Both the position numbers and the translations under genes were made by a program. Under the pieces are notes generated by a model. It saw nothing but the letters and a program-made list of their open reading frames with translations. It was not told the DNA's origin and made no database searches. From a virus (lineage: Duplodnaviria > Caudoviricetes): 64,000 bases of DNA. This document shows positions 5,916 to 53,738 of the stretch, piece by piece. The DNA is taken from IMG/VR virus record IMGVR_UViG_2534682025_000001, positions 1-64,000 of that record; one strand, given 5' to 3'. The number at the start of each line of letters is the position of its first letter. Position 1 is the stretch's first letter.

Positions 5916-5978
5916 TGCGCCCCCTAAATTTTGGTAATAAAAAAGCACCCAGTTGGGTGCCTTGATTCACTTATACTC

Positions 5979-6158
5979 TTAACTCTTTAAAACCAAAGAT
6001 TCTTTGAATATTAAATATTCTTGAGGTGATACTTGAGATTCAACCTGCAGGTAACTTTGATTTCCATCCAGGTGTATTGTGTCTGATAAGAACTCAGGAC
6101 ATTCAACTACATTTTCAATCTCACCAGATGATTTATCATAAACTGCATAATAAGCCAC
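5979..6158 (-). CDS. 59-aa protein after the tail tip gene, possible fibre assembly factor (not in ORF track)
   Basis: GTG start with GAGG RBS; MAYYAVYDKSSGEIENVVECP...; same position as the 181-aa protein in prophage 2. Confidence 0.6.
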   Translation of the reverse strand: MAYYAVYDKSSGEIENVVECPEFLSDTIHLDGNQSYLQVESQVSPQEYLIFKESLVLKS

Positions 6159-6161
6159 TTT

Positions 6162-9100: not shown

Positions 9101-10640
9101 GATCCAGAGTAATGACTTTGCGATCAGCGCTGACAGCAGAAATACGCCCACCATTGGCACGACCTGCGAATAACTCGTCTGCAATTTCAATCACGCGCCC
9201 TGGTTGTGGAATATAGCCATCTAAGCCGACTTTAAAAGATACAGTGCGAGTTTCTAGTTGCTCAGACTTTAACGCCCAAAGACCTGCACGTTGCGCCTGA
9301 CCTTCCGATGTACAGCCCCATGCGTCAATCTCAGCAATACGCACACCGAGCTTTGCAATAGCTGCTTCATCACGCACATAGACATACTCTGTCTTATAGT
9401 GGTTTGCAGGGTTATCCCATGCAACCTTAGCAACTGTGTGACGGTCACGCGCACGTGTGCCTGTGTATTCAAACAGCCCCTCGATAACATTGGCACGGGT
9501 ATAAGTGAAGTAAGTATCTTGCGGAATATCCGCATCACAGACAATGGAGTTTCCATCCCAATAACTGATGGCACGGAATACACCAGCGAGTTTACTTAGA
9601 ATGGTATAAGCATCTTCGGTTGATTGCAGATACACATTACAAGTAAAACGCGGCTCCTGACCGCCTTTGCCGTCATCTACAAGCTGATCACAATATTGTG
9701 CCAGGCGATATAAAGACCATTTATCTAGCATTGCAGAGGTTAATCGATCACCCAATGCATAGCGTTTCGCGGTGCAAATATCGTAATAAATCCATGCCGG
9801 GTTATTGGTATAAGCGCGTTTAAATGTACCGTCCCACATGCCTGCATAGGTACGTGCAACAGGGTCATAATTTGATGGAACCTGAAGCTTAATCCCTTTT
9901 AGATCAACTGCGACTTTTGCCACATTGGAAAAGGTTTCAGCATCATATTGCAGACCGAGCATAGCGGTATTCGGGTAGCTTAACTTTAGGTCGATGACTT
10001 CTGTTAGTGCATCCACATACATCTTGTCGCTGATATATTCTGATGTTGAATTAGGTGTCAATCGACGCACGCGAACTGTCCAGCCAGTATCAGACTTTGG
10101 CAAATCAATCCGGTGTGAACGCTCATAGTTTGCGGAAGTTTTATCAGCGATTTGAGTATTTAAAACCTCAGTCCATGTGCCGCGATCAGTTTGTAGATCA
10201 ATCGCATACTGAATGACGATGCCTTTTACATCACCATTTTCAGCATTCTGCTGACGCAATGGCCCCCATTTAAAGCGCAAACGGATTGCATCCAGATCAG
10301 TATTAGTCAGTGAGCGAACCCAAGGCGATTCAGACTTCAGCTCCACATTGATTGCGGTTTCAGAGGAGATATCTGGAAAGCCTTCGATGTGGGTCTGGTC
10401 ATTGGTGCCATGGCGAAAATCAGCCTGAATATCTTCAAAGTTCCAGCCACCAGCCGGATTTTGTAGCGGTGTCTCTTCCAGATAAACCGATTGCAAGCCA
10501 CTGGCTAGACCTTCCACCTCCCCCTCAGACAGCCCGTACAGGATTTTTATATAGGTTTTTGACTGAGCTGAGTCTGGTGCAATTACCGCTTTTCTTGCCT
10601 TGCCTTCACCTGCTTTTGCGCCTTTAATTACTGCGTTCAT
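6162..10640 (-). CDS. Tail tip / host specificity protein (lambda J-like)
   Basis: 1492 aa; J-like N-terminus (YTNNPAWIYYD, EPRFTCN), fibronectin-like domains, coiled coil, His-box C-terminus. Confidence 0.92.
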   Translation of the reverse strand: MNAVIKGAKAGEGKARKAVIAPDSAQSKTYIKILYGLSEGEVEGLASGLQSVYLEETPLQNPAGGWNFEDIQADFRHGTNDQTHIEGFPDISSETAINVELKSESPWVRSLTNTDLDAIRLRFKWGPLRQQNAENGDVKGIVIQYAIDLQTDRGTWTEVLNTQIADKTSANYERSHRIDLPKSDTGWTVRVRRLTPNSTSEYISDKMYVDALTEVIDLKLSYPNTAMLGLQYDAETFSNVAKVAVDLKGIKLQVPSNYDPVARTYAGMWDGTFKRAYTNNPAWIYYDICTAKRYALGDRLTSAMLDKWSLYRLAQYCDQLVDDGKGGQEPRFTCNVYLQSTEDAYTILSKLAGVFRAISYWDGNSIVCDADIPQDTYFTYTRANVIEGLFEYTGTRARDRHTVAKVAWDNPANHYKTEYVYVRDEAAIAKLGVRIAEIDAWGCTSEGQAQRAGLWALKSEQLETRTVSFKVGLDGYIPQPGRVIEIADELFAGRANGGRISAVSADRKVITLDRDDVVCRAGDRLVVNGEDGKAQGRIVSSVNGRNIIVTTAFDAVAAENVWAVDAQDLKTMKFRVMSITQDDKHQFSITGLQYESAKYDAIDFGAFIDERPISIINPTIQAPVESVSITSETMVQQGLSVETMIIAWPQAIGATKYQVEWRKDDGTWIKLPITGNNSAEVSGIYAGNYEARVTAISAFDIASLPTYSILTALTGKQGLPPALANLSATGILFGYRLNWNFPAVGALDTAYTEIEISSTANGANAAQLGLFAYPTDTHVIQGMQPNLTRYFRGRLIDRIGNVGPWSARVSATTSADASAVLDILSGKITELQLHQDLQTKIDKIDTIAGLDGDIGNLIDNITAVQTQADQLNTALNQETQQRISAVQDLDDGLTQEIEDRQSGDTANLNALNNYKSSNDQALANVQQQVNTAVTATSANTQAVQALDSRVTTTEGNANTAKTNAATALNKAETATTQAGSAASLASQASAIANQAADTADTANQTAATALSTANVAATQSGANATRLDAITLELGNKASTGALSQTDAKVAEHEGKISANTTKIDGVYAQVNPKLIGSTEDLIGSTEGFAGTWTLQSAMIENDMALSQRIDTTVAQIGDNTALIQAEAIARADADNALSQTINTVQSSVGQNTASIQEVVQSVSGLYAQKYIKLDVNGKVAGWGGANDGKESNFILNFDSFAIGSGNSTGYYPFIFRNTPFTDPVTGTVFPVSAYLRSAMMDYQSVKTSHIEDLAVKTAKIANLAVDTLKIKDNAVTVPVSAFAEAAIQVGAGYTTIQTLYVPADMGHTILTFGAVFSFNSFDTKQQILCRVLKNGNVVFENLEVFYLESNTVGKTTSLSGSHSHGVSVSFSGNTSNEGSHSHSVSVSGNTGSTNAGGTFHSHSFSDSAGTNSAGTHSHSFNVNSSSFTSAADPGHTHSVNIDNQSRGAGTMNISRHDSTGIAGTFQLQLIAVTGGNISVSQRYIHAMTMRK

Positions 10641-10694
10641 ACTTTTCCTTAGACAATAAAAAAGGCGCTTATTGCGCCTGTGTTTTTTAAATAT

Positions 10695-11276
10695 TTACAT
10701 TAAATCTTCTGGATACTGTCCAGCACTTGCGATAAAACCACCAACCTCACGCTGACCGTAAAGCACTGGCACTGGATTGCCTTGCGCTACTGTGGTGACT
10801 GCGCCACCAAAGCCCTTGTTTGCCTTGTTGCCGTCTTGGTTCTGGTCTTGGTTTTCAATCTTTGGCATCAACATCATTGCAATACCACCGACCATCATAC
10901 CGACACCCGCACCAATTAATGCAGCACCAACCGCACCCGCCGAACCAAAGGACATACCAGTCACAACAATACCCACAACCACTAGCACAGCGCCAAGAAT
11001 GGTTTGAACTGCACCACCTGCACCCTTTACTTTCGGAACAACCTTAATCACCTTGGCACTGGTGCTCATGTCGAGTTCGGTTTCAGAAATATTTTGCTTA
11101 TCCTGAAAAACGGCAAACTCCAAGCCTTGCTCATGTGCATGTAGCATGAAGTGTTCAAAGCCTTGCACTTGCACTGATAAAGCCCGCATGGCTTCACGGG
11201 TATTATCAACAGCTAAATGAAACTCTTTGCCGAACTTCTTGGCTAAAATGCCGTAAAGTCTAATTGTTTTGAGCAT
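10695..11276 (-). CDS. Tail assembly protein (lambda I-like)
   Basis: MLKTIRLYG... and AQGNPVPVLYG motif; start moved to MLKT by comparison with prophage 2. Confidence 0.88.
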   Translation of the reverse strand: MLKTIRLYGILAKKFGKEFHLAVDNTREAMRALSVQVQGFEHFMLHAHEQGLEFAVFQDKQNISETELDMSTSAKVIKVVPKVKGAGGAVQTILGAVLVVVGIVVTGMSFGSAGAVGAALIGAGVGMMVGGIAMMLMPKIENQDQNQDGNKANKGFGGAVTTVAQGNPVPVLYGQREVGGFIASAGQYPEDLM

Positions 11277-12012
11277 ATCGAACCACCTTTGCAACTCGTT
11301 CTTGCCACTGTGAACCAAACACTTCACGCACTGATTTGCGGCCATACGGATGATGTAAAATGATTGATGAGCCTACACACGATTCTGTTTGTTCGGACTT
11401 CAATTCAGTCTGATCTCCAAGCCAAATCACGGCATGGTTTACATGCTCAGTGCGTCCAACACGGCACAGCAGCACATCACCGTATTGCATGTCGCTCACC
11501 TCAACAAAGCCAGCTTCACCAAAGCCATCCAGATACAGTGATTTGTTCTCTTTGGATTCCCACCACAAATCCTGTCGTTCAAAGTCAATTAACTTGATAT
11601 CTAGTTCACGCTGATAAAAATCACGCACGATTGAATAGCAGTCTTGTATGCCGTGAATATAGTTGCGACCCACCAATGGCGCTTTATATCCGTATGGCTC
11701 ATAGACCTGAAATTCAATATCAGGATAAGCACAGATTACCCATGGCTTTTCATGCAATTCGATCTGAATTAAATCAATCTCAGACGCACGTGCAGAAGCA
11801 TTCGGATGTGAATGTACATAGGCTTGAATCTCGCCTAAATCCTCTGCTGCTGCTAAATCCTCGTGATGAATTTCAAACTGGTCTTTATTGTCTGAAATAT
11901 TGCGGCACGGAATGTATTCTTTACCGACAATCACGCCACAGCACTCATCTGGGTAAACTTCAGCAGCATGTGTCTGGATTGCTTTTTTAAGTTTTGCGGT
12001 TAGTTTCATCAC
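11260..12012 (-). CDS. Tail assembly protein (lambda K-like; JAB + NlpC/P60)
   Basis: YPDECCG, VHSHP, DCYSIVRD and NHAVIWLG motifs. Confidence 0.9.
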   Translation of the reverse strand: MMKLTAKLKKAIQTHAAEVYPDECCGVIVGKEYIPCRNISDNKDQFEIHHEDLAAAEDLGEIQAYVHSHPNASARASEIDLIQIELHEKPWVICAYPDIEFQVYEPYGYKAPLVGRNYIHGIQDCYSIVRDFYQRELDIKLIDFERQDLWWESKENKSLYLDGFGEAGFVEVSDMQYGDVLLCRVGRTEHVNHAVIWLGDQTELKSEQTESCVGSSIILHHPYGRKSVREVFGSQWQERVAKVVRYAQNN

Positions 12013-12806
12013 ATTAAACTCGACGCTGGAAAGCCACCAAAGCAGATTTCATTATTGCGAATACGGCATGAAGATAAACGGCCAGAACAGCGATCTAGCG
12101 CAGGGTTATCTGTTGGCTCATCCTTATCAGTAAACATCGCTGCACCTGTAAATTGACACGATTCACCCCTATATTCGCCCATCGCGCACCAGTGGCAGTA
12201 ATTAGAAATCTGCCGAACTGGTATTTTCAGACCCTCAAAATCAATTGGATTCGATAGCTCAAATGTTACTGCGTTGGCATTTTCGGAAGTCTTTTGTTCG
12301 ATGTACCAAAGCTGCTCTTTTGCTTCGTTTGATGCAGAGGAGTTGCCCTCACTAAAGTTTTCAGCATCAAGGTACTTGGCAAGCGTGGTAATAACTTTGA
12401 GCTTCGCGCCTGCGAAGTCACCAAACTGTAAACAGTAAGCAGATACAGCACCTTGCAGCCCACCAATATTGTTCACCATGCTAAAAGTGGGAGCGGAAGC
12501 TTTACCATCTGAACGCATCTCTAAACCTGATACTTCAAGCGCCATGGGTTCAAATGTTTGACCTTGCCAGATGATATTTCTGAACCATGTTTTTTCATTG
12601 CCCTGCTCGAACACTTCACCAATGAGTTGGGTGGTATCACCCATCAAACCATCAGAGCCAATTAAGCTGTAAATACGCTCCCAATCTTCATAAGAAATAT
12701 GACCATGAAAACGCAAAATGCCCGCACCTAAAGCACGAGCATCTAGTTCAAACAGCGTGATCAGACCATCTACATACAGCTTTTGAAAATCACTGTTCAG
12801 TGTCAT
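12009..12806 (-). CDS. Minor tail protein L
   Basis: CHWC...YRGESCQF...DRCSGRLSSC...FGGFP Fe-S signature. Confidence 0.9.
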   Translation of the reverse strand: MTLNSDFQKLYVDGLITLFELDARALGAGILRFHGHISYEDWERIYSLIGSDGLMGDTTQLIGEVFEQGNEKTWFRNIIWQGQTFEPMALEVSGLEMRSDGKASAPTFSMVNNIGGLQGAVSAYCLQFGDFAGAKLKVITTLAKYLDAENFSEGNSSASNEAKEQLWYIEQKTSENANAVTFELSNPIDFEGLKIPVRQISNYCHWCAMGEYRGESCQFTGAAMFTDKDEPTDNPALDRCSGRLSSCRIRNNEICFGGFPASSLM

Positions 12807-13785
12807 TGTATGACTCCATTACTGTAGCAACCGCTTCAGCCAAGCCAGTAGGTTGAAAGTCAGGTGGTGTAATTGATTCAGGTTCTTCAATTTCAGGTTG
12901 CGGAAGCTCTTGCAAGCGCAAGTCAACCCAACGGTTTTCGTTAATATCCACCGGATTATCAAGATCAGCAACAATAGACACTGTTTCAAAATCAAACTTT
13001 TTCTTATATGTTTTTACTGAGATATCGCCATTTTCCAGTGTTGTATAAATTACTGAAAACAACACATTACCGTTTGCGTCTTTCGGGGTTTCAACATACC
13101 AGCCTTCTTGCGCGAAACCTGATGAGCCTTTGATCAAGTAATCGCCAACGCCTAATTTTTCAAACTCGATATTCTGCTGTTGTGCTTCGTAGTTGAGTTC
13201 AATTTTATCTGCAAATAATTGAACAATTGGAGATGCCGCTTTGACAAAACCATTTGCGTCAACTGTTGTGTTTCCACTTGAGTAGAGCTTAAACCAAGAA
13301 CCCATAGATGAAGTGCCATTGCGTCTTCTGAAGTAGATATTGCCATCATTCAGCGTATCTCTTGTAGCCATCTGAAAGACCCTGTGAGATGCGCTTGTTC
13401 CTCCAGAATTACTTTGAATAACATGACCCCATGAAAGGTCTACACCAGCAGGGAAGGTTCCCGCAATTCCACCGTTGGATGATGCTATACAAGGCTCGGT
13501 AGAAGTATCTATATTAATGGGCGGCGCTAATCCAAGACCGTTCGTCAAGAGTGCCTGAGTTGCTGCCGTACCTAAGCCTAAATTTGTACGTGCTGCTGCT
13601 GCTGTGGTTGCACCTGTACCTCCTTTACTTATTGGAAGTGCAGCAGGCAATACTCCTTGAGCTGTTGCACCCAATTGGCTGTAAAGCTCATCATCATTCG
13701 CCTGTAGTTTTGCTGAACCTGATCGGAACGTGTCACCGCCTGCGCCTGTAGGTGCTGTACCTGGATTAATTGTTTGTTTAGCCAT
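12790..13785 (-). CDS. Short tail fibre-like protein
   Basis: MAKQTINPGTAPTGAGGDT N-terminus, GGTGATTAAAARTNLGLG fibre repeat, NTTVDANGFVKAASP C-terminal domain. Confidence 0.75.
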   Translation of the reverse strand: MAKQTINPGTAPTGAGGDTFRSGSAKLQANDDELYSQLGATAQGVLPAALPISKGGTGATTAAAARTNLGLGTAATQALLTNGLGLAPPINIDTSTEPCIASSNGGIAGTFPAGVDLSWGHVIQSNSGGTSASHRVFQMATRDTLNDGNIYFRRRNGTSSMGSWFKLYSSGNTTVDANGFVKAASPIVQLFADKIELNYEAQQQNIEFEKLGVGDYLIKGSSGFAQEGWYVETPKDANGNVLFSVIYTTLENGDISVKTYKKKFDFETVSIVADLDNPVDINENRWVDLRLQELPQPEIEEPESITPPDFQPTGLAEAVATVMESYNDTEQ

Positions 13786-13837
13786 AATTTACGCCCACAA
13801 AAAAGCCCCAACATGTGGGGCATAAAATTGATTGAAG

Positions 13838-14179
13838 TTAAGGTTTAAAGTCTTGGGTGAAAGTGGTGGAGATGGACCAGATACCACCGCCTAAACTGAC
13901 TGGCATATAATCCCCTGCGACTACACGAACCTCGCCATCTAGCGGTGAATCCCAAAGGAAAGAATCAGCGCCTTTGTGTGCATCAAAAAAGGCCTTGATC
14001 TCTTGTATCAAAGCCTTCTTGCCAGTTTTTTTGTATGCCCATGTGCCTGACCTATTGTTAATCCCTACACTTGTTCGCTGTGTGTATCCATCGCCAAAAC
14101 TGGACTTAAGAACCTTAAAGCTTGATGTTTGTGAGTTGCCATCTAGGTCATTGCACCAGGTGAATTTTTGATTGCTCAT
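13838..14179 (-). CDS. Minor tail protein M
   Basis: FGDGYTQR...GINN and FLW motifs; follows the tape measure gene. Confidence 0.85.
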   Translation of the reverse strand: MSNQKFTWCNDLDGNSQTSSFKVLKSSFGDGYTQRTSVGINNRSGTWAYKKTGKKALIQEIKAFFDAHKGADSFLWDSPLDGEVRVVAGDYMPVSLGGGIWSISTTFTQDFKP

Positions 14180-16704
14180 TTAGATAATAGGCCTCCTTGA
14201 CGTTGCTCTTGTCGAATCACCGTACGAACTGCATTACCAATCATCTGACCAAGTTGCTTCTGATCTGACTGATTGGATTGTGTTGTTACACCTGAATCGG
14301 TGACATGAACAGTGATATTTACATCGCCCGAACCAGAGCCATTCGCAAGATAGTTCTTCAAGTCAGCATTCGTCCGACTATCCACAACACGTTCCCCCTT
14401 ATCTAGCAGCCATGTGCCTTCTTTCGGGATATTGTCGATACCGTCGTGGGCCATACCTGCAATGGTTTGACCGGCGATTAGGCCAACTGATGCATAGCCC
14501 ATACCGCGAACCAAAGTAGATGCTGGAATACCTAGAATTGGGCCAAGCTCTAGCGCTCTTGTTGCAGCCAACTCTGTGCTAATAATAGCCTGACCAATCG
14601 CAATTGCTTGCTGCATTAAGAACATGGCCTTATAAGCGCCTGACTGCTCTCCCGCACTGTCCTTGACCATTTGAGTCATAGATCCCCAAACGGTTCCGGC
14701 TTGCGAGAGAAGCATTCCGTAGACCTCTAGCTTATCCTCATAATTTTGGACTTCTAAATCCTTGACTCTTTCATGATAATCAACATCAATGGCAGCCATT
14801 CCATCACGGTATTCTTGATGCGCTTCCAGTAATGCATCGTAACGCTCATCGTCAGTCGAATAAGCATCACTGGTCATGATGTCCTGCTCGACTCTGACGC
14901 GCTCACTCTTCAAACCCAGTTGAGAATTTGAGCGATCATTTTCCAGTGACCAGCGATCATAGTCTTGCGGCGACATTGTTGCTTGAGCAAAGATTTCATC
15001 AGCTCCATAAGAAAGGCCTTTAATACTTTCTCGCATGGTTTGTTGTACGTTTTGAGCATGGAAGCGAGCTTTTTGAAGCTCGATAGCATATTGCTCATCG
15101 AGGGCTTTGAGTTTTAATTGCTTAAGCTCATCATTATATTTGCCAGACTCATTTACAATAATTCGCTGAGTCTCATAAAAATAATCAAGCTTCTGCTCTT
15201 CAGACCACTTAAAGGTATTAATTTCCTCAGTGATCTGGCGAAGATACATCTCCTCTTCATACTCATAACGAGCTTTTGCTTTGGCTAGATATTCAGATTC
15301 TTGTGGCCCGAAATTGGCTTTTTGAATTTCCTCAAGTTCGCGTTTAAGATCAACAGAGAATTTCGCAAAATCATCCATGTAATCATACGAGATTGCGTCA
15401 CGCGCCCGGGCTTGCTCTTCGAGCAACCTGTTTAATTCTTGCTGAGCCTTATTGTTTTCCTTGGTGGCTTTGGCTGCTTCGTTTTGTTTTTTAATCCACT
15501 CATCCGAGCCTTTGGTTACACCAGCCTGACTGTTTTGGATTTTTGCCATAGCAGAAACAGACTGATTAACAGCATCGTTATAAATACGATTAATAGAGTT
15601 TGCTACATCATCGGCAACCTGAGCATTATCTTGAGCCGCCATCTGGACAGGGCTGTCTTTATTAACTTGAGCATTTGTGGCACCCAAAATAAATGCCTTG
15701 GTAATTTTAACACCCGGCAATTTATCAAAAAAACTTCCGCCTTCCGCAGCTTTATCAACCATCTGTTTTGATTGCGCAGCCTGAGCAGCAAGACCAGCGA
15801 TGCTATTGGTGAGCATCTTAACGACCGCATAAACCCCCATGCCGGTTGCAGCCACACCCTTAAATACCTCACCAAGCGTTTCGCCAGCATCTGACATTAA
15901 GTTGGTTTGCAATGTAGCATCAGAAAGACCGTCGCCAACCGACACAAGTGCAGGCATCAAACCTTGAATAAATTGATTTTTAACGCCTTGCACCTGAAGA
16001 TTAAGCAAATCCATTTGAACACGAAGCTCATTTGCTTTTTCTATGGCGTGCTCGTCCATGATTACACCAGCGCGTTCAGCAGCATCAGCCCAATATTCAA
16101 AACCTTTACCACCATCTCTTAAGAGCGGGATAAGGTTGGTTGTATCAGATGCCATGCTTTCTAAATAGAAAGACATTTGTTGCTGAGTAACGCCTGCTTC
16201 TTCAAGTTTATCTACATAAAGTTGTAGCGCTTTAGGGCCGGAAAGATTCTGCATTTCAAGCGCTAGTTTTCGTGCAGCCTCTGCCGAACCCTCTGTTTTA
16301 ATCGCGATCTGCTCAAAGAAATCAACTGCACCGCCGGAACCAATGGTAATAAACTCACCCAACTTTTCATTAAAGTCTTTTAACTGGTCAGATAGCTTTT
16401 CCGAGCTGATCCCCATGGTCTCAGCGCCCACAGCCATTCTCTGAAATTCTTGTGTTGTTGTATTTGAGATGGAAGCAAAAGTCTGTAGCTCACGAGCGGC
16501 ATTTGCATATTCGTTTGCCATGGCAAGCACACCAGCACCTACAGCCGCAGCGCCTGAGACAGCTATTGCACCATAGGTTAGTACGCTTTTTTTCATCGCA
16601 TCAAAACTGGTTACGGTTTGTTTTTCTGCCGTTTTAATTGGCGCTGTAAAGCCAGCGGTTCTGGTTACCAGATCAAGGGTTAATGTTCCCAGTTTTGTGC
16701 TCAT
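14176..16704 (-). CDS. Tape measure protein
   Basis: LGTLTLDL N-terminus, helical Ala/Gln-rich body, MAHDG...GERV C-terminus. Confidence 0.9.
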   Translation of the reverse strand: MSTKLGTLTLDLVTRTAGFTAPIKTAEKQTVTSFDAMKKSVLTYGAIAVSGAAAVGAGVLAMANEYANAARELQTFASISNTTTQEFQRMAVGAETMGISSEKLSDQLKDFNEKLGEFITIGSGGAVDFFEQIAIKTEGSAEAARKLALEMQNLSGPKALQLYVDKLEEAGVTQQQMSFYLESMASDTTNLIPLLRDGGKGFEYWADAAERAGVIMDEHAIEKANELRVQMDLLNLQVQGVKNQFIQGLMPALVSVGDGLSDATLQTNLMSDAGETLGEVFKGVAATGMGVYAVVKMLTNSIAGLAAQAAQSKQMVDKAAEGGSFFDKLPGVKITKAFILGATNAQVNKDSPVQMAAQDNAQVADDVANSINRIYNDAVNQSVSAMAKIQNSQAGVTKGSDEWIKKQNEAAKATKENNKAQQELNRLLEEQARARDAISYDYMDDFAKFSVDLKRELEEIQKANFGPQESEYLAKAKARYEYEEEMYLRQITEEINTFKWSEEQKLDYFYETQRIIVNESGKYNDELKQLKLKALDEQYAIELQKARFHAQNVQQTMRESIKGLSYGADEIFAQATMSPQDYDRWSLENDRSNSQLGLKSERVRVEQDIMTSDAYSTDDERYDALLEAHQEYRDGMAAIDVDYHERVKDLEVQNYEDKLEVYGMLLSQAGTVWGSMTQMVKDSAGEQSGAYKAMFLMQQAIAIGQAIISTELAATRALELGPILGIPASTLVRGMGYASVGLIAGQTIAGMAHDGIDNIPKEGTWLLDKGERVVDSRTNADLKNYLANGSGSGDVNITVHVTDSGVTTQSNQSDQKQLGQMIGNAVRTVIRQEQRQGGLLSK

Positions 16705-27265: not shown

Positions 27266-27455
27266 CCAAGGTCACATTGATTTCGCTAAGCAGGTATTGA
27301 TTGACTTGATCTACAGTGGAGACATTCACAAATACCAACTCAACATCTTTGATTGCCAGGCCAGTCTCAGCCTCAAACAATCGCTTACGATCAGCTATGT
27401 CTTGGTATAAATCCCGCTTAAAGGTATCGAGTCGTTCTTGATCACTTGTACCCAC
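27237..27455 (-). CDS. Hypothetical protein
   Basis: ORF track; GTG start with GGAG RBS. Confidence 0.5.
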   Translation of the reverse strand: MGTSDQERLDTFKRDLYQDIADRKRLFEAETGLAIKDVELVFVNVSTVDQVNQYLLSEINVTLGDSDDMCIV

Positions 27456-27459
27456 GGCG

Positions 27460-27645
27460 CTATCTCCGACTTAAATTGATTTGAATGTTCTTCATGCGAG
27501 TACGGATGTTTGCCATTACCTCATCAATAGCCATCATCTGTTTGCTATTCATGAATGCTCGACTTAGGTTCTGGTACTTCACCAACTCATCGTGCAATTC
27601 ATTTAGATTCTTTTGCGCCTCTTTGACATCCATACGCACCACCAA
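27460..27645 (-). CDS. Hypothetical coiled-coil protein
   Basis: ORF track; probable start MDVKE. Confidence 0.5.
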   Translation of the reverse strand: MVVRMDVKEAQKNLNELHDELVKYQNLSRAFMNSKQMMAIDEVMANIRTRMKNIQINLSRR

Positions 27646-27855
27646 TAAGAAAAGAAAAACCCCTCAACATCTAGAATGCGAGGGGCTTTATTTGCCGTAA
27701 TACGTCCGGCGAATTTTAAGAATAAAAAAAGCCTGTTTAACTCTCTCTCCAATTAAACAGGCTTGACTTGCGCTACAACTTATTTCTTATTTGCAGGGCT
27801 ACCATATTGTTTAAGTATTTCAATCTAATGACATGGCTATTTGTTTGAGTGATTG

Positions 27856-27966
27856 TTATTCAACTTCTTTCAAACAATCCCGACACACTTTGATTTCTTC
27901 ATCAACCGTGTAATCGATTTCAGTCACACCGTGAAGGCCGAATAAACACATTAAGAATCGGAGCAT
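27856..27966 (-). CDS. 36-aa protein MLRFLMCLFGLH...CRDC (not in ORF track)
   Basis: GGAG RBS; C-x-FG-x-H...CxxC pattern seen in small prophage proteins. Confidence 0.55.
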   Translation of the reverse strand: MLRFLMCLFGLHGVTEIDYTVDEEIKVCRDCLKEVE

Positions 27967-28331
27967 TACTTTTCTCCAGACAAAAAAATACCTCCTTTAC
28001 AGGGAAAGGAGGCAGAAACTTAATAGAAACTACAGCCATAGAATCTGGCCCGCATTATATACATAATAATATTATATGCAAGGCTGTACCCTTAAATTGA
28101 ACCTTGCAATAAAAAGCCTGCTTAGCTGGAGGGCTAAACAGGCCGTGGAGTATTACATTATACTTGTTGTTGTAGCGTTCTAGGAATGAACACAAGATAC
28201 CAGTTGCTCACCACAAATAAGTATAAGAAATATATGCAGAATGTTTTAACGTGTAATAATTAAGTTATATTTATCAATAAATTGATCATCATTTAGTCAA
28301 AAATATCACTTAATAATCAATCTTGTTTATC

Positions 28332-28408
28332 TGGCACGCCATGTAGGACTCGAACCCACAACCATTGGTATAGAAAACCTATGCTCTTTCCAGTTGAGCT
28401 AATGGCGC
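28332..28408 (-). tRNA. Phage tRNA-Arg, anticodon TCT
   Basis: Cloverleaf: GCGCCAT acceptor, GCTC/GAGC D-arm, loop TTTCTAT, GTGGG-TTCGAGT-CCTAC T-arm, encoded CCA. Confidence 0.9.
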
Positions 28409-28410
28409 AT

Positions 28411-28649
28411 AAAAAAGGATATGACGATCTGCCACACCCTTGCCTTAGATTACGATACTGACCAGCTCGGCAACTGATCTACCGCTACTCACAATCCCAC
28501 ACACCTAACATGCACGGTCCGCTTTACTTGCTTTCAATCCTCTTTAGGTCGGGACGCTACTCCCTAGTCTAAATTCCCGAAGGAAGTTTACTCGATGGCA
28601 TGTTCCACTGCTCGGCACTCCAGAAGGCTTGGGTCGCCTTTTCACAGGC
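28411..28649 (-). ncRNA. Candidate about 240-nt multi-helix structured RNA upstream of the tRNA
   Basis: Several nested helices found by hand, a cUUCGg tetraloop, repeated UGCCGAGC and GAGUAGCG motifs, 3' terminator; no ORF in the track. Confidence 0.6.
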
Positions 28650-28652
28650 ATT

Positions 28653-28679
28653 AAAAAAGCCCACCATTTGGCGAGCTTT
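28653..28679 (-). terminator. tR'-like terminator after the late promoter
   Basis: AAAGCTCGCC-aaat-GGTGGGCTTTTTT on minus. Confidence 0.75.
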
Positions 28680-28714
28680 CAAATCAATCTAGTGCTTTAA
28701 CGTACACTTCGATC

Positions 28715-28754
28715 ACTATAACATAAATATACACATATATGGCGCACCAAGCAA
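28715..28754 (-). promoter_or_regulatory. pR'-like late promoter with -10-like pause element
   Basis: TTGCTT-17 bp-TATATT followed by TATAGT near +1, downstream of the Q gene. Confidence 0.65.
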
Positions 28755-28838
28755 ATATTATTTTGAAAGCTTGTTCTTTAATTTAAAATCATATAAAACA
28801 ATGTATTAACTACTTTAGAATAAGCTTATGAATGAAAG

Positions 28839-31067
28839 ATGATTAATTGTCTACATATTAAAAAAATCGCGACTTATAATTCTATTGGTGTAGAAATAAA
28901 TGACCTAAATAAAGTCAACTTTATCTATGGTGGTAACGGTTGTGGGAAAACAACTATTTCAAATTTTTTATTTCATCATACCCATCCTGATGAATCTGCT
29001 AGCAATTATTCTTCATGTAACATTGCATTTAAAAGCCTAGAAAAGATCAAAATTTTAACTTATAACAAAAAGTTCAGGGATCTAAATTTCTATAAAGATT
29101 CTGAAATACCGGGTGTTTTCACGTTAGGTGAGGCTTCAATTGAGGAAATACAGGCAATAAATAGCAAAACAGAAGAGTTAAATCTAGCAAATAAAGAATT
29201 AAACAAGACTCAAACTCAAATTACTAACTTTACTGAATTATCAAATAAACAAGAAAAAGAATCGATAGAAAAATGCTGGGACGTATTCAAACAATATGAA
29301 GATGATTTCAGACCAGCTCTTCTAGGTTCTGGATTTTTGGGCTCTAAGGCTAACTTCAGAAAAAAAATTTTAAATACATTACCTTTGGGCGGGAGAATCA
29401 TCAAACCACATTCTTCTCTTGTTGATCGCACCAAAACACTTTTTTCAACAAAATTAGAAACACTCGATGAAATTCACCTTAATGAATCAAATCCCCTAGA
29501 ACTTTATGAATCATCAGATATTTGGAAAACAATTATCATTGGTAAAAAAGACTTAGATATAGCTAAATTAATTAATAATTTAAATATTACAGATTGGGTA
29601 AACCAAGGACGTTCATACATAAATGATTCAACTTGCCCTTTTTGCCAAAAAGAAACTATTGATGATGTTTTTAAAAGCAGACTTGAGGAGTATTTTGATA
29701 ATGAATTCGAAAACAAGGTAAAAAATCTAAAAGCTTTGCAAGAAAAATATGAAATTGCTTGTACTAATTTGATTAAAGAATTAGAAAACGTCTTAGCCAA
29801 AGAAATAAGTAGAAACAGTAAGCTCAATATAAAAGAGTTTGAAATCGAATTAGAAAGTCTTAAAAACCTACTAAGATTAAATATTCAATTATCACGGGAA
29901 AAGCTAACCAGTATAAGTAGCATAATAGAATTAAGCTCATCTAATGATATTTTTAATGAAATTACTTCACTTATTAACAGTGCAAATATCGAGATTAAAA
30001 ATCACAACGATTTAGTTAATTCACATGTTCAAGAAACCACTAAGTTGACTTCAGAAATTTGGGATTTTTTAACATTCGAAGCTAATCACCGTATTTCATC
30101 ACATGAAACTCAAATAGAAAATCATTGTAAGGCCCTCAACGGAATGAAGGCATCTGAAGAGAAAGGAAAAGAAAAAATTCAGCGCTTAAGCAATGAGCTT
30201 TCCCAATTAAATTCAACTTCAACAAGTGTACAGCCTGCAGTAGATGAGATTAACCTCTTATTAAAAGGATTTGGTTTTACTAATTTCAAAATTGATAAAG
30301 CTGAAAAGCCTAATCATTACTGGATCAAACGTGATAATGGTGACAATGCCTTGCACTCACTAAGTGAGGGTGAATCTACATTTATTACTTTTTTGTATTA
30401 TCTACAGGTAGTTAAAGGCTTATCAACTAAAGATGAGGCAATCACAAGCAAAATCTTAGTTATCGATGATCCAATTTCAAGCTTAGATAGCAATGTATTA
30501 TTTATAGTAAGCACATTAATTAAAAATCTTATAAAAGGTACAATATCTAGAGATAGCACACTGGGTATTAAACAAATTATCATCCTTACTCATAACGTAT
30601 ATTTTCATAAGGAGATCTCATTCCAACTCCAAAAAGATGATTCAAATCATGTTAATTACTGGATATTAAGAAAAAAAGAAAACACGACATTCATTACAAA
30701 TCATGGTAAAAACAATCCTATTTCCTCAACATATCAAATGCTTTGGAATGATGTAAAAGAAGCAGACAAAAGTAGCTCAACATCAATTCAAAATATCATT
30801 AGAAGAATTCTAGAAAATTATTTCAAAATTCTAGGAAATTACAGCGACACACAAATTATTGATGAATTTAATACATATGAAGAAAAGAAAATTTGCCAAT
30901 CATTACTGCATTGGATAAATGATGGATCTCATTGCATTCCTGATGATTTATTTATTCAACCCATAGATTCAGAAAAAGATATTTATTTAGATGTTTTCAG
31001 AAAAATATTTGAGAAATCTGGACATGAGGCTCACTACAATATGATGATGGGTATAACTAATCATTGA
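28839..31067 (+). CDS. RloC-like Rad50/ABC ATPase with C-terminal HEPN-type nuclease (AAA_13 family)
   Basis: Walker A GGNGCGKT, coiled coil with CPFC zinc hook, LSEGE signature, VIDDPISSLD, LTHN, C-terminal RRILE...NDGSH; very AT-rich. Confidence 0.8.
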   Translation: MINCLHIKKIATYNSIGVEINDLNKVNFIYGGNGCGKTTISNFLFHHTHPDESASNYSSCNIAFKSLEKIKILTYNKKFRDLNFYKDSEIPGVFTLGEASIEEIQAINSKTEELNLANKELNKTQTQITNFTELSNKQEKESIEKCWDVFKQYEDDFRPALLGSGFLGSKANFRKKILNTLPLGGRIIKPHSSLVDRTKTLFSTKLETLDEIHLNESNPLELYESSDIWKTIIIGKKDLDIAKLINNLNITDWVNQGRSYINDSTCPFCQKETIDDVFKSRLEEYFDNEFENKVKNLKALQEKYEIACTNLIKELENVLAKEISRNSKLNIKEFEIELESLKNLLRLNIQLSREKLTSISSIIELSSSNDIFNEITSLINSANIEIKNHNDLVNSHVQETTKLTSEIWDFLTFEANHRISSHETQIENHCKALNGMKASEEKGKEKIQRLSNELSQLNSTSTSVQPAVDEINLLLKGFGFTNFKIDKAEKPNHYWIKRDNGDNALHSLSEGESTFITFLYYLQVVKGLSTKDEAITSKILVIDDPISSLDSNVLFIVSTLIKNLIKGTISRDSTLGIKQIIILTHNVYFHKEISFQLQKDDSNHVNYWILRKKENTTFITNHGKNNPISSTYQMLWNDVKEADKSSSTSIQNIIRRILENYFKILGNYSDTQIIDEFNTYEEKKICQSLLHWINDGSHCIPDDLFIQPIDSEKDIYLDVFRKIFEKSGHEAHYNMMMGITNH

Positions 31068-31117: not shown

Positions 31118-31513
31118 TTATTGGTTACATATAAACTCTAATCTACAATCCAACCAGGTTTCCCCAGCAAGTAAATATTTATCGATTATGCGCCTGTCAA
31201 CTTTACTTAATTTTTCCAAAGCTCGGATTGACAACCCCTTCAAATAATGAAACTCAATCCACTGGTACAGATCTGGCCGTGAAAAGCGCAACTGCGTCAC
31301 CAGGTGATCAATAGCAACCAAAGCATCATCATCCAGCATCACCTGAATACCTGACGACTTCTGCCCCTCTTTCAAACGCATCAAACCATATGTAGGTGAG
31401 GTATAAGTCAATTCACTTGGATTATATGAAGCATGACGCGCCCACTTACCCCACTGCGCCAATTCATTCTGCATCATTCGAACCGTTGGTTTTACTTCTA
31501 CAATTGCGCTCAT
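31118..31513 (-). CDS. Late antiterminator Q
   Basis: LAQWGKWAR, DDDAL..ID and C-terminal HTH; last gene of the early right operon. Confidence 0.8.
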   Translation of the reverse strand: MSAIVEVKPTVRMMQNELAQWGKWARHASYNPSELTYTSPTYGLMRLKEGQKSSGIQVMLDDDALVAIDHLVTQLRFSRPDLYQWIEFHYLKGLSIRALEKLSKVDRRIIDKYLLAGETWLDCRLEFICNQ

Positions 31514-42911: not shown

Positions 42912-43661
42912 TCATTTGAGGGCATTATTATATTTAATTAGGATATTAGCCACAGCCTTAGCAGCCAGCCAGTAACGCGCATTGAATCGTGCAAGTTCAT
43001 CTTCATTGGAAATAAAGCCAAGCTCTACAATCAAACCGCCAGCATTCACGTATGCCAGACGGCCACGCGCTGATTTACTTTGATCAATCCAACCGTTGTC
43101 ACCACGTAATCGACTACCCAATGCATCGGCTACAGCTTTAGATAAGTCCTGTGCAAGTTTCTTGTCTTTGGGTAATGCAATCGTTTCAATGCCATTTGCC
43201 TGTTTTGATGCTGCAGCATTCATGTGGAATTCGACTGCAACACTTGAGCCTTGAATCAATTTTACCGCAGCAGACAAAGGGTCGTTTTTGGTGCCAGTGC
43301 CATCGGTCTTGACTTGCAGCCCCGCTTCACGCAAATAATGAGTTACTGCATTGCGGAAATTAACCACCAGATCGGCTTCTTTCACTTTGCCATTGACTGC
43401 ACCGGGGTCTGTATTACTGTGCCCTGCTGTAACTGTGACAAAGCCTAAAGTCTGATTATGTAATTGTGGTTGTGCGATTTTACGACCTACCCAGCTTAGG
43501 GCTGGCAATACAGTACCAATGATAAAAGGCGCATATTGTTCAGGGATAAAATTAAAGTCTAATGCCCACTGAATAACTAAAACTGCAAGCATTAAAAAAG
43601 CCCCCAGTAGTGGGAGCTTTACGGATAAGTACTGAAGTGCACTTTCTTGGATTAATTTCAT
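42912..43661 (-). CDS. Endolysin: Amidase_3 with N-terminal 2-TM holin-like domain
   Basis: Highly similar to 4615-5361. Confidence 0.85.
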   Translation of the reverse strand: MKLIQESALQYLSVKLPLLGAFLMLAVLVIQWALDFNFIPEQYAPFIIGTVLPALSWVGRKIAQPQLHNQTLGFVTVTAGHSNTDPGAVNGKVKEADLVVNFRNAVTHYLREAGLQVKTDGTGTKNDPLSAAVKLIQGSSVAVEFHMNAAASKQANGIETIALPKDKKLAQDLSKAVADALGSRLRGDNGWIDQSKSARGRLAYVNAGGLIVELGFISNEDELARFNARYWLAAKAVANILIKYNNALK

Positions 43662-44017
43662 TTTAAGGTTTCCTCAAGTCGAGTGACTTTCTCTTTCATT
43701 AGTGATTGTGTTTGATTGATTTGAATGATTGATGCACCAACCCAAATACATGCGCCGAGAATCGAACCACCACAAAGGCCGAGCAAAACCCTTAAAACCC
43801 CAAGACCTCCATCCTGAGTTGCAGACTTGTTTTCAAGGCTTGATACTTTTAACTCAAGGGCATCAAGTTCTTTTTGGATTTTGGCAATTGCATTCTCATG
43901 GTGTTCGTTAATAAAGGTTTGGCGTGCAACATGTTCCAGGATCAATCGAATGTCTTTATGAATGGAATCAATTTTCCCCTCCCATCCATTATTGTTGTAC
44001 GGCCTATTTTCAGGCAT
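43658..44017 (-). CDS. Coiled-coil single-TM lysis-cassette protein
   Basis: TM GLGVLRVLLGLCGGSILGACIWVG; overlaps the endolysin start. Confidence 0.6.
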   Translation of the reverse strand: MPENRPYNNNGWEGKIDSIHKDIRLILEHVARQTFINEHHENAIAKIQKELDALELKVSSLENKSATQDGGLGVLRVLLGLCGGSILGACIWVGASIIQINQTQSLMKEKVTRLEETLK

Positions 44018-44125
44018 ACATCCCCCCTATAAAATTGGCATTAAAAAAGAGCCTTTCGGCTCTGGTGGTGGATCATTTGACATTGTGCCCCCTAAATTTT
44101 GGTAATAAAAAAGCACCCGAAGGTG

Positions 44126-44671
44126 CTAGAGATTGATTTCTTCTACTTGCTCTTTAGTTTCAGCTTCAAAGATTAACTGTCTAGCAATGCGCCCTTTTTC
44201 GTGAACGCTTGCGATATGGGCTTGTAGTGCTGCATAGAGTTGCTGCAACTGTGATGCGCTTAACTCGGCTGTTGTGTTGTCCGCTAGAGTCCATACTTGA
44301 TCTATGCTCGCAGCAGCCGCGCCCATAATGCGACCTTGAGAAACCTGATCTGAATCATAAGTACTCCCATCGAACTCAAAGCCGCCGAACTCAAGTTGAT
44401 CGCGCTGTGATTTAATCTCGGCCCATTTCTGGGCTTTGATTTCATCAAGGGTGCGCGGATCAATCCATTGTTTGATAATGTAGTCAAACATGTGGTTAGA
44501 AGAAGGTGCTGGTGGTGGTGTAATCCAGCCGCGCTCTATGTCAAAGTAATCAAGATTTGTGCTCGGCGGCATCTCTACTAACAGGTCTTCTGTGACATAT
44601 TTAACTGAGTTTGAGGTATTTATTTCACCAACAAACCTCCCGGTGTCCTTACATACAATGTAAAACTTCAT
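44126..44671 (-). CDS. Tail fibre assembly-like protein (DUF4376-like)
   Basis: KWAEIKSQRD...YDSD..SQGRI...WTLADN. Confidence 0.75.
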   Translation of the reverse strand: MKFYIVCKDTGRFVGEINTSNSVKYVTEDLLVEMPPSTNLDYFDIERGWITPPPAPSSNHMFDYIIKQWIDPRTLDEIKAQKWAEIKSQRDQLEFGGFEFDGSTYDSDQVSQGRIMGAAAASIDQVWTLADNTTAELSASQLQQLYAALQAHIASVHEKGRIARQLIFEAETKEQVEEINL

Positions 44672-47600
44672 CGCTTGACGCTCGTTACGGTCATTAATAC
44701 ATTATTCCCACGGAATTGACGCATATTATCCATCGCTTCATTCCCACCTGTTGTTAGTTTGCAGAACCTTAATGTCACAACTGTGCCATTCGGAACCCCC
44801 TTTAATATCCAACGAAGTGAAAGCCCATTTATAACGTAGCTCTGTATAAAACCATTTGAGTGCCAGGCTTCCTTGCTATCCATCACAGCTGCCACCACCT
44901 GCACCTGCGTCCCGGCGACAACCGCAACATAAACCCTTTTTTCAAAATTACTCCCTGCATCCCGTGTATCGTAATAAAGCATGGATGCCGTAAGGTCAAC
45001 TTGAACACCACCACCTTCAGGATTAACAACAAAGCTACCGATAGGATTGCCAAACAGGTAGCCTTGCCCACTAGCCGAGTAATCTGGCATCAAGGCTTTC
45101 AATTGAGCCCCAACATCCGAGTTCACTTCAAAAGCTCTACCGCTTTGGAAATTAGCATAAACTACATTACTAATCGCTGTTACGGCCTCCCCGTCAATCT
45201 TTAATGTCTTGACCTGCGCATCACCAATCTTGGCAGCTGTTACGGCCAAATTATCAATATTGGCAGTTTTTACTGCTAAGTTATCAATCTTCGCTGTCTT
45301 AACCGCCAAATCCTCAATATGCGAAGTTTTGACAGACTGATAGTCCATCATTGCTGATTTTAAGTAAGCGGACACAGGAAACACTGTGCCTGTCACCGGA
45401 TCAGTAAATGGCGTATTGCGGAAGATGAATGGGTAATAACCAGTGCTATTCCCTGAACCAATCGCGAAAGAATCAAAGTTCAGAATGAAATTCGATTCCT
45501 TGCCATCATTCGCCCCGCCCCAGCCTGCGACTTTTCCATTCACGTCGAGCTTGATGTACTTCTGCGCATACAAACCATTAACCGACTCACTAACCTCCTG
45601 AATTGATGCGGTGTTTTGACCTACAGTGGTTTGAATGGTGCCAACTTGTGTTGCTGTAGCCCCCTGCTGTGTAGTCAAAGTATTAACTTGGTTTTGCACT
45701 GTCGCGATGTTTTGCGTTGCAGTGTTAGCCTTGCCGAGTGCATCATTTGCTGTGGCCTGAGCTGCGTTGGCTACAGCCTTGGCGGCGGCTTCGGCAGCAT
45801 CCGCTTTATTTTTGGCGTCTAGCGCTGCTGCTGCTTTTGCTGCTGACTCAGCTGCATTGGCTTTAGCGGTTGCATCACTTGAAGCTGATGCCTTTGCTGC
45901 ATCCGCCTCGGCTTTTGCCTTCGCTTCTGCATAAGTTTTTGCTGCCGCCTCCGCTGCTGCTGATTTAGATTGCGCATCTAAAATAGCTTGATCTGCCGTT
46001 GATTGGGCTATTTGTGTTGATGCCTGAACAGTATCCACACGTGATGACAAGGCAGAATCCGCGTCAGCTAAAACACTCATTTCTGAGCGAATAGCTGCTA
46101 GATTCTGTTGCAGATCATTACCCACTTGAGCTTGCAGGGTATCAACCCGATGCCCCAGTGCGGAATCCGCATTAGCCCGAGCAATAGTTTCAGCCTGAAT
46201 GAGCGCTGTATTATCTCCAATCTGTGCAACCGTTGTATCAATACGCTGACTCAAAGCCATATCACCTTCAATCAATGCTGATTGCAAAGTCCATGTACCT
46301 GCAAAACCTTCAGTTGAGCCAATCAGGTCTTCAGTTGAGCCAATTAACTTCGGGTTAACCTGTGCATATACACCATCAATTTTGATTGTATTGGCACTGA
46401 TTTTTCCTTCATGTTCAGCCACTTTTGCATCGGTTTGAGACAATGCGCCAGTACTAGCCTTATCACCTAACTCTAATGTAATAGCATCAAGTCGTGTTGC
46501 ATTTGCCCCTGATTGAGTTGCAGCAACATTCGCAGTAGATAAAGCAGTTGCAGCGGTTTGATTTGCTGTATCTGCTGTATCGGCTGCCTGATTTGCAATT
46601 GCACTGGCTTGGCTTGCAAGACTTGCTGCTGATCCAGCCTGAGTCGTTGCGGTTTCAGCCTTGGTTAATGCGGTAGCTGCATTGGTTTTGGCGGTATTTG
46701 CATTGCCTTCTGCCGTAGTTACACGACTATCCAGCGCTTGCACTGCTTGCGTATTTGCAGATGTTGCGGTTACGGCACTTTCGGCAGTTTGTCGCACATT
46801 TGCTAAAGCTGTGTCATTAATAGATCGATAATCCGTTAATGCTTGAGCATTTGCCGTATCACCATCAGCTCGTGCTTCTGATTCCGAGATAATGTTCGCT
46901 TCATTGTCACCAACACGCGCATTCATACCAGAAATATCACTAGCTAAAGCTTGATCAGTATCTGCAAGTGTCTGCAACTTTTGATTAATCGATGCTGTAT
47001 TTCCGCTAAATTCAACATTTAATGAATCAATGCGTTCAGACAATGCATCATCTGCACTTACACGAGCTGTCTGTTCAGTTAAAATATTTGCAGCATTATT
47101 ATTTACTGATACAGTCAATAGATCTGTGCGCTGCGCTTGAAATAAATCACCTTCTTGCACTGCGGACAGAATCGACCATGCCCCCGCATTTCCAGATTCA
47201 CTACCAATTAAATCATCAGTAGAGCCGATCATATCTGGATTTGTGATGACTTCAACACCAGTGACACGCTCGGCCAATACTCTATCAGCATCAACTCGAG
47301 CATTACTTTCATCAACAACCATGGCTCGAAGGTCTTGATTACTCTGGTTCGATTCGGCACGAACTGTTTCAATTAGTGATGCATTTGCAGAATCGGCATC
47401 AGCTCGAGCAATTGCCTCTTGATTAATTGCAGCAGTGTTTTCATCAACTTCAGCCAAGACTGAATCAATCCTATGGCTGATCGCGGAATCAGCGCTTGCT
47501 CTCGCTTCCGCTTCTTGCTGAATCGCTGCTGCATTATTTCCTAAACTTGCACTTACAGTATCAATGCGACTGCTTAAATTGCTATCAGCAGAAATACGCT

Positions 47601-50427: not shown

Positions 50428-50481
50428 ACATTTCCCTAGACAATAAAAAAGGCGCTTAATGCGCCTGTGTTTTTTAAATAT

Positions 50482-51057
50482 TTACATTAAATCTTCTGGA
50501 TATTGTCCAGCACTTGCGATAAAGCCACCAACCTCACGCTGACCGTAAAGCACTGGCACCGGATTACCTTGCGCCACTGTAGTCACAGCACCGCCAAACC
50601 CCTTGTTTGCTTTGTTGCCGTCTTGGTTCTGATCCTGATTCTCAATTTTTGGCATTAGCATCATGGCAATACCGCCGACCATCATACCGACACCTGCGCC
50701 GATTAATGCCACCCCCAGTGGAGCACCAACACCAGTGAATACCATAACAGCACCAACCACTACCAAAACAGCACCAATAATGGTCTGCACCACACCACCC
50801 GCACCCCTTACCTTTGGCACCACCTTGATCACTTTGGCGCTTGTGCTCATGTCGAGTTCAGTTTCAGAAATATTCTGCTTATCCTGAAATACAGCAAATT
50901 CTAAGCCTTGTTCATGTGCATGTAGCATGAAGTGCTCAAAGCCCGGCACCTGAACTGATAAAGCTCTCATCGCTTCACGGGTATTTTCCACATCGAGCCG
51001 AAATTCTTTACCGAACTTCTTGGCTAGAATGCCGTACAACTTAATTGTTTTGAGCAT
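50482..51057 (-). CDS. Tail assembly protein I-like
   Basis: Homologue of 10695-11276. Confidence 0.88.
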   Translation of the reverse strand: MLKTIKLYGILAKKFGKEFRLDVENTREAMRALSVQVPGFEHFMLHAHEQGLEFAVFQDKQNISETELDMSTSAKVIKVVPKVRGAGGVVQTIIGAVLVVVGAVMVFTGVGAPLGVALIGAGVGMMVGGIAMMLMPKIENQDQNQDGNKANKGFGGAVTTVAQGNPVPVLYGQREVGGFIASAGQYPEDLM

Positions 51058-51790: not shown

Positions 51791-51911
51791 AGAATGCCTT
51801 TATTTTTGAGCACTTGTCACATTGATGCTGTATTTGTGGTGGGTATGAAAGCAATACAATTCCAGTAGGCTTAAGCACACCACCACATAAACAATATTTT
51901 TTATCACTCAT
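51768..51911 (-). CDS. 47-aa zinc-ribbon-like protein (not in ORF track)
   Basis: MSDKKYCLCGG...YPPQIQHQCDKC; TGATG coupling to the L stop. Confidence 0.6.
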   Translation of the reverse strand: MSDKKYCLCGGVLKPTGIVLLSYPPQIQHQCDKCSKIKAFYETNRKT

Positions 51912-53687: not shown

Positions 53688-53738
53688 AATTTACGCCCAC
53701 AAAAAAGCCCTCATTTGAGGGCATAAAATTGATTGAAT

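Follow-up and report, generated by a model that had tools for sequence, protein, structure and literature searches.

Gene order at the locus and identity of the RNA

We analysed a window of 64,000 nucleotides, by which we mean the whole stretch of viral DNA, taken from a provirus entry of 84,614 bases that holds two copies of the RNA described here. On the minus strand, a gene of prophage A (31118-31513) matches PF06530 (Phage_antitermQ, 52.9 bits against a cut-off of 26) and phrog_79 (E 1.7e-22), and judging by these matches its product is a Q antiterminator of the phage 82 type. Further along the same strand lie a structured RNA, with its core at 28460-28627, and a tRNA-Arg(UCU) at 28332-28408, which was found by ARAGORN and scored 55.7 bits with the Rfam tRNA model. 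They are followed by further terminator-like hairpins at 28144-28115, 28014-27989 and 27764-27729 and, downstream of the terminators, by genes for an HNH endonuclease and for the small and large terminase. Within the 1.4 kb from 27400 to 28800, the minus strand has five terminator-like sites, compared with 1.1 ± 1.1 in shuffled sequences. The HNH family, phrog_131, matches 28 of the 147 downstream ORFs that we compared among homologues, and divergent members of the RNA in other genomes are also located between Q-like and terminase genes.

Two other elements lie close by. Between the Q gene and the late promoter, in the opposite orientation (28839-31067, plus strand), there is a gene of 742 aa that matches AAA_13 with 526.7 bits, the PADLOC candidate system PDC-S06 with 805 bits and, over residues 471-726, PrrC with 45.7 bits. 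It looks like a defence gene of the PrrC/RloC-like anticodon-nuclease type, placed back to back with the phage tRNA cassette. On the minus strand at 27985-28080, after the tRNA and its terminator, TTGCAT, a 16-nt spacer and TATAAT precede a short hairpin and the strong terminator at 28014-27989, a unit whose transcript would be about 60 nt long and which is followed by a short cysteine-containing ORF (roughly 36 aa).

The core of the RNA is a full-length match to the Rfam family RF03046 (Pseudomonadales-1), with its helices P1-P5. Using cmscan it scored 112.7 bits, the curated gathering score being 68, and in a permissive Rfam scan of 28200-28800 the model was matched untruncated, from position 1 to 164 of 164, at an E-value of 1e-27. 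That scan gave four Rfam matches at E <= 1, none of which, beyond RF03046 and the tRNA, was better than chance; two leader families at E 0.4-0.46 matched just a terminator hairpin. Comparison of the whole window with Rfam at the curated thresholds gave three matches, namely RF03046, the tRNA (28335-28408) and int-alpA (RF02996; 62539-62612, minus strand, 40 bits, the cut-off being 35.8). The RNA is an ordinary, typical member of a known family, one catalogued without a known function. An earlier, sequence-only reading of this DNA had assigned the RNA to no recognised named family and had proposed a cmscan against Rfam as a check, noting that a strong match would remove the novelty of the RNA; at 112.7 bits, the match does remove it. 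Rfam files RF03046 as a small RNA with a model of 164 positions, and we take its source to be the survey by comparative analysis that Weinberg et al. published in 2017 (PMC5737381). Searching the literature for ‘Pseudomonadales-1’ we found no paper text naming the family, and a search of the literature on Acinetobacter small RNAs returned nothing relevant to RF03046. The main text of PMC5737381 does not mention Pseudomonadales-1; its supplements may already note the prophage context.

The general description given by the sequence-only reading, namely a conserved non-coding RNA with several helices, located between a terminator and a phage tRNA on the strand of the late genes, agrees with both the covariation data below and the RF03046 match. 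The stretch is indeed free of ORFs (none of at least 40 aa occurs between 28195 and 28839) and richer in GC than its flanks (0.48 at 28400-28699, compared with 0.25-0.39), and every sequence string quoted in that reading was located at its coordinates when recomputed. Folding energy, which it had named as a measure of structure, did not distinguish the RNA: the 241-nt stretch had a z-score of -1.42, equalled by 18 of 200 shuffles, and for the 168-nt core (z = +1.05) 174 of 200 shuffles were as good. The folding energy of both is no better than chance, a result that we do not take as disproof because the covariation and the model score stand.

Conserved structure and limits of the cassette

Homologues were collected from viral contigs with a motif pattern, which gave 78 loci. 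Thirteen of these were judged by eye in the alignment to be chance matches and dropped (L003, L004, L009, L012, L015, L022, L025, L031, L038, L049, L056, L058 and L075), and three hits that lay at the ends of contigs (L026, L028 and L093) were not used. Covariance-model hits from five of the Acinetobacter genomes were added. The covariation set, alignment A2, comprises 87 distinct aligned homologues out of 91 distinct extracts, L117 and L119 (32.9 and 36.9 bits) having been left out by eye, and set A3 comprises 147 of 164 distinct downstream ORFs. All 19 genome loci found by the motif pattern were from Acinetobacter, a host range within the Pseudomonadales, as is that of the family. When the family of one Acinetobacter genome was sampled, 10 of 151 genomes gave a match at E <= 0.001 and 5 of 151 one above the cut-off. 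With the 401-nt module as query, blastn gave matches to 54 of 50,697 cultured-phage records, and the 40 matches listed involved only the tRNA part (query 284-393), none of them covering 80% of the query; a megablast search of cultured phages with the 20 kb around the module returned one match only, to a capsid gene. Other RNAs were seen near some homologues: a match to abiF RNA (RF03085, 54.5 bits) is found some 450 nt downstream of the RF03046 copy in a nectar-type Acinetobacter (L103 2115-2151, plus strand), and in L112 sRNA-Xcc1 (57.3 bits) lies upstream of the RF03046 copy.

The pairs counted in A2 were those of T0, P0, P1, the pseudoknot, the UUCG insert hairpin, P2, P3, P5 and T1. P4 was left out of the counts because MAFFT misaligns it in divergent rows; it covaries in divergent members in the cmscan alignments. 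Over the whole structure 81.2% of cells were paired, compared with 75.6 ± 0.3% after shuffling, a level that none of 500 shuffles reached, and the figure dropped to 34-43% with slid partners. Cells changed on both sides numbered 285 against 135 ± 9.8 in shuffled data, which again was reached in none of 500 shuffles.

Five helices of the sequence-only reading were borne out by these 87 homologues. The long-range helix AACAUGC/GCAUGUU (28598-28604 with 28507-28513, minus strand), in which 4 of 7 pairs vary on both sides, is a genuine pseudoknot that joins the P1/P2 junction to the loop of P4, where its 3' strand lies. There are at least five alternative complementary versions of it among divergent members (GUUAGC/GCUAAC, UGGGC/GCCCA, AUGCAC/GUGCAU, AUUGG/CCAAU and AUCGG/CCGAU). 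All three pairs of the UUCG hairpin covary, and this hairpin proved to be an optional insert. Changes on both sides were also seen in the GGGA/UCCC hairpin, which corresponds to Rfam P2, and in the last hairpin, GAUCAGU/GCUGGUC, which corresponds to P5, and in the 5' hairpin GCCU-GUGAAA-AGGC the column pair 76/93 is CG in 36 homologues and UA in 21. Helices P1, P3 and P4 were absent from the earlier fold. In the window copy P1-P5 can all be formed, with non-standard pairs at two places in P1 and at a few in P2 and P4; at both places in P1 the pairing is restored in copy 2.

The remaining helices of that fold fared differently. Neither the closing helix (28624-28634 paired with 28436-28446) nor the lower second arm, GGAUUGUGA/UCGUAAUCU, covaries: together they had 73.2% of cells paired compared with 73.4% after shuffling, reached by 375 of 500 shuffles, and 17 cells changed on both sides compared with 18.3, reached by 356 of 500. 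The lower second arm occupies a strand that Rfam pairs in P3 and P4. The doubling of UGCCGAGC and GAGUAGCG, also pointed out earlier, is present in the window and is not kept in copy 2 or in most homologues. These results bear directly on the proposal that the closing helix competes with the stem of T1, the terminator-like hairpin before the tRNA, and so gates transcription of the tRNA or of the late genes. In the window the strands of the closing helix are complementary, its 3' strand overlaps the 5' arm of T1, and the full-length minimum-energy fold draws part of it. Among homologues, however, the covariation of the helix is nil, with an invariant 3' strand and a variable 5' strand, and the 27 of 86 RNAs that end in another 3' hairpin (class 2) keep the 5' strand and lack the 3' partner, so that a cis switch finds no support. 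As is established for Q antitermination, a Q-modified polymerase would in any case pass T1. Overall we regard such gating as extremely unlikely. A switch based on terminator competition was accordingly set aside, the competing helix showing no covariation and T1 covarying.

Conservation extends beyond the Rfam model, to a unit that consists of T0, the 5' hairpin, the core, a 3' extension, T1 and, as an optional last part, the tRNA. T0 (28653-28676, minus strand) is an intrinsic-terminator-like hairpin, GCUCGCC-AAAU-GGUGGGC with six U, that folds with -15.3 kcal/mol (z -4.81) and lies 1-2 nt before P0. In 84 of 86 homologues the RNA is immediately preceded by a hairpin with a U run, the stems being of at least six kinds, and a conserved UGCCUG comes after the U run; it is on this fold and conservation that T0 rests, the output of a simple terminator scan not including it. 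Locus L126 has a late promoter with a terminator of its own and then a separate T0 abutting the RNA, and L145 has the same promoter and terminator and is missing the RNA, which indicates that T0 is part of the cassette and not of the phage backbone. P0 (28634-28651), that is, the GCCU-GUGAAA-AGGC hairpin with flanking pairs, lies outside the Rfam model; it folds with -6.4 kcal/mol (z -4.11, none of 200 shuffles as good), and GCC/GGC alternates with GUC/GAC in homologues.

On the 3' side, likewise outside the Rfam model, an extension of 18 nt, AGUAUCGUAAUCUAAGGC (28442-28459), is conserved in sequence in class 1 (53 of 86 homologues); a covarying partner for it was looked for and none was found. 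T1 (28411-28441) comprises a hairpin at 28441-28415 and a run of six U to 28411, and folds with -13.6 kcal/mol (z -4.36, equalled by none of 200 shuffles). It was found by both scan and fold, 2 nt before the tRNA as the earlier reading had it, and 11 of its 11 pairs vary on both sides among the 87 homologues. By the criterion used, T1 is present in 60 of 86 homologues and is thus not universal, and in one 3' subclass the terminal hairpin has no U run. The 3' ends fall into 53 that are window-like, with P5, the extension and T1 (class 1), 27 with another hairpin replacing P5 (class 2) and 6 others. In many class 2 homologues a unit of the type seen at 27985-28080 directly follows the RNA.

The limits of the cassette are also visible from its second copy, which lies beyond the window at 73306-73473 of the record, in the neighbouring prophage, scores 119.6 bits and is followed by a tRNA-Trp(CCA). 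The two cassettes are identical at 317 of 348 bases (91%), and the match begins exactly at T0, with its first base, and stops just beyond the 3' end of the tRNA, the flanks being unrelated. The two tRNAs (28332-28408 of the window and 1376-1450 of L001, both on the minus strand) have identical acceptor, D and T arms and differ in the anticodon arm, Arg(UCU) versus Trp(CCA). The tandem prophages themselves are siphovirus-like; they have tail-fibre and assembly regions that are 83-91% identical (window 4630-14457 and record 42930-54361) and differ in head, packaging, replication and regulatory genes. RF03046 also occurs twice in the Acinetobacter locus L106, about 600 nt apart (894-1059 and 1501-1656, plus strand, 111.4 and 107.9 bits). 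The second of these copies is a variant with about 170 nt from the T0/UGCCUG start to P1, and this variant is found in L107 and L109 as well.

It is plausible, as the earlier reading had it, that the RNA is freed by tRNA 5' processing after being co-transcribed with the tRNA. The position of the tRNA raises the question of whether the RNA is a leader that serves it in processing, stability or expression. Of the 53 class 1 homologues, 34 have a tRNA immediately behind T1 (counting the first tRNA, 18 are Arg-UCU, 14 Trp-CCA, one Met and one undetermined), and both copies in the record carry one. These 34 are nonetheless the only ones among 86 homologues: the other 52, including 27 of 27 in class 2, have no tRNA directly after the RNA, and the core is conserved whichever tRNA follows. 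A function as tRNA leader thus seems very unlikely.

Candidate late promoter, Q genes and proposed expression of the RNA

A candidate late promoter lies at 28754-28715 on the minus strand, where TTGCTT (28754-28749), a 17-nt spacer and TATATT (28731-28726) are followed, after 5 nt, by TATAGT (28720-28715). The layout can be read directly from the sequence and would make this the start of the late transcript; the scan tool missed it because the -35 box is too weak. In many homologues, Q-like genes are likewise followed by a -35/-10 pair and then by a second -10-like box of the TATAGTG or CTATACT type. A -10 box with a second -10-like box within 1-9 nt was found in 58 of the 84 homologues with enough upstream sequence, using an ad hoc pattern that missed the other 26, at least ten of which have an ORF and two terminators upstream and no visible promoter. 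In lambdoid late promoters, a second -10-like element in this layout loads Q at a sigma-dependent pause. The window holds the elements of a Q-dependent late leader, i.e. a gene of a Q family, a candidate promoter with a -10-like repeat and then a terminator.

The genes upstream of the RNA are of more than one kind. Among 61 distinct upstream ORFs (60 immediate neighbours and the window Q), 20 match the Q-like phrog_79 and 12 match phrog_5656. The phrog_5656 protein encoded before copy 2 (182 aa; record 73602-74147, equal to L001 1797-2342, minus strand) has no Pfam family and no sequence relative among solved structures (best E 0.55). Its predicted structure (pLDDT 77.9) gave an E-value of 0.28 with Foldseek alone. 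Using VIA-align, the model matched Q-lambda in loading complexes with Z-scores of 9.9 and 9.8, the former with an rmsd of 2.8 Å over 115 residues and below the value of about 13 advised for helical proteins, and matched AlpA with 7.4 and 6.1, unrelated rows starting from Z 5.5. On the strength of this model, phrog_5656 is probably an unannotated family of Q-type antiterminators in Acinetobacter phages.

The RNA does not accompany Q genes as a rule. Of 30 loci encoding relatives of the window Q (48-100% identity), 4 have it within 4 kb downstream; the 26 without it often carry other genes after Q, and four of them have less than 2.3 kb of downstream sequence, so that the RNA may lie beyond the flank. 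That the cassette is found with two Q types unrelated to each other speaks against its being a component of the Q mechanism itself and, together with the 4 of 30 Q loci and the tandem divergent copies, leads us to argue that the RNA is cargo that acts independently and not a cog of antitermination. The same evidence weighs on the idea that it acts in cis, in the manner of put RNAs, by modifying, pausing or stabilising the polymerase or its late transcript. Its location would suit such a role, as it always shares the strand of the late genes and has a Q-type gene on one side, the packaging genes on the other and several terminators around it, and so would its compact pseudoknotted fold with conserved junctions. 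Yet T0 precedes the RNA in 84 of 86 homologues, so the RNA cannot help the polymerase to reach it; moreover, 26 of 30 related Q genes lack it within 4 kb, it goes with Q proteins of two unrelated types and it occurs in tandem divergent copies in one genome, and only the RF03046 and tRNA families match the region beyond chance. Action in cis therefore appears improbable to us.

An independent small-RNA gene, or moron, with an unrecognised promoter of its own and expressed in the lysogen, would agree with the filing of RF03046 as a small RNA, with the sharp limits of a cassette that moves among unrelated phage backgrounds and with the class 1 and class 2a ends, which resemble small-RNA terminators. 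What speaks against it is the space available: from the U run of T0 to the conserved 5' hairpin there are just 1-2 nt, and between T0 and the RNA neither inspection by eye, which found no -35/-10 pair in any upstream class, nor the scan tool detected a promoter. We consider a separate gene of this kind unlikely. If there is no promoter at this place, the RNA would be made only by a polymerase that ignores terminators, that is, after Q has been produced.

We therefore favour as fairly probable that the RNA is a promoter-less, terminator-flanked cassette in the late-operon leader of this Acinetobacter-type prophage that is gated by Q, excised and active in trans during lytic growth. Unmodified polymerase starting at the late promoter would stop at T0 and leave a short RNA of about 65 nt, and only Q-modified polymerase would pass T0 and make the RNA and the tRNA alongside the late genes. 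The 5' end could then be set by cleavage in the U-rich spacer after T0 and the 3' end either by RNase P at the 5' end of the tRNA or by termination at T1, and the freed product would persist as a stand-alone structured RNA during lytic growth. In short, RF03046 is most likely a cargo RNA made only by antiterminated late transcription.

As to what such a cargo might do, one speculative reading, which we rate as rather doubtful, is that RF03046 is a late counter-defence or host-takeover RNA, delivered with spare tRNAs and kept silent in the lysogen by its own T0; it could, for example, be a decoy or inhibitor for tRNA-targeting nucleases. Its accessory nature, its tandem divergent copies, its occurrence with tRNA-Arg(UCU), tRNA-Trp or tRNA-Met, and a cargo slot that it shares with a PrrC/RloC-like gene and an abiF RNA are compatible with this.

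Meaning and comparison with known systems

The RNA itself was already known, and our contribution is to place an orphan family in its setting. Its members are phage cargo in what is most likely a Q-controlled late leader; they come with a T0 of their own, exceed the Rfam model in length and are frequently joined to a tRNA. A ‘small RNA of unknown function’ thereby becomes the subject of a testable claim, namely that antitermination is required for its synthesis and that it acts in lytic growth, which directs experiments to induction time courses and not to lysogen physiology.

The relation to RF03046 is one of membership and not of analogy, as the match is full length and above the cut-off, and the helices and the host order are identical. 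The unit described here differs from the Rfam model in adding T0, P0, the optional UUCG insert, the 18-nt 3' extension, T1 and often a tRNA. The other comparisons are of a looser kind. The put RNAs of HK022 are structured phage RNAs in an operon leader, close to terminators, and the RNA in the window is also phage-encoded, structured and placed in an operon leader near terminators; in contrast to put, it has no sequence or model similarity to those RNAs, a terminator comes first, and the RNA is an accessory element found alongside Q proteins. The sequence-based tests made here lend no support to a put-like or riboswitch-like nature.

GOLLD and ROOL are structured RNAs of prophages, described in PMC5737381 as frequent neighbours of tRNAs, with which they may be co-transcribed, and as having no known function. 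They share with the RF03046 RNA the association with prophages, the structure and the neighbourhood of tRNAs, and differ in being much larger. Their models are absent from the three matches at gathering score in the window and from the four at E <= 1 in 28200-28800. Identity with GOLLD/ROOL or with HK022 put was rejected, neither having matched as an Rfam family at E up to 1, and both are analogies only.

The closest likeness by map position is to short transcripts of late promoters. Lambda 6S RNA is such a transcript of a lambdoid late promoter. StxS is the short late-promoter transcript of Shiga-toxin phages (PMC7547250). As in those cases, the RNA lies in a leader between a Q-controlled late promoter, here a candidate one, and the late genes, where Q overrides, or here would override, a terminator. 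The lambda 6S and StxS RNAs are constitutive products that end at the first terminator, whereas RF03046 sits behind the first terminator and should thus be made only on read-through. With its conserved pseudoknotted fold RF03046 is not a by-product, and its likeness to lambda 6S and StxS is one of map position only.
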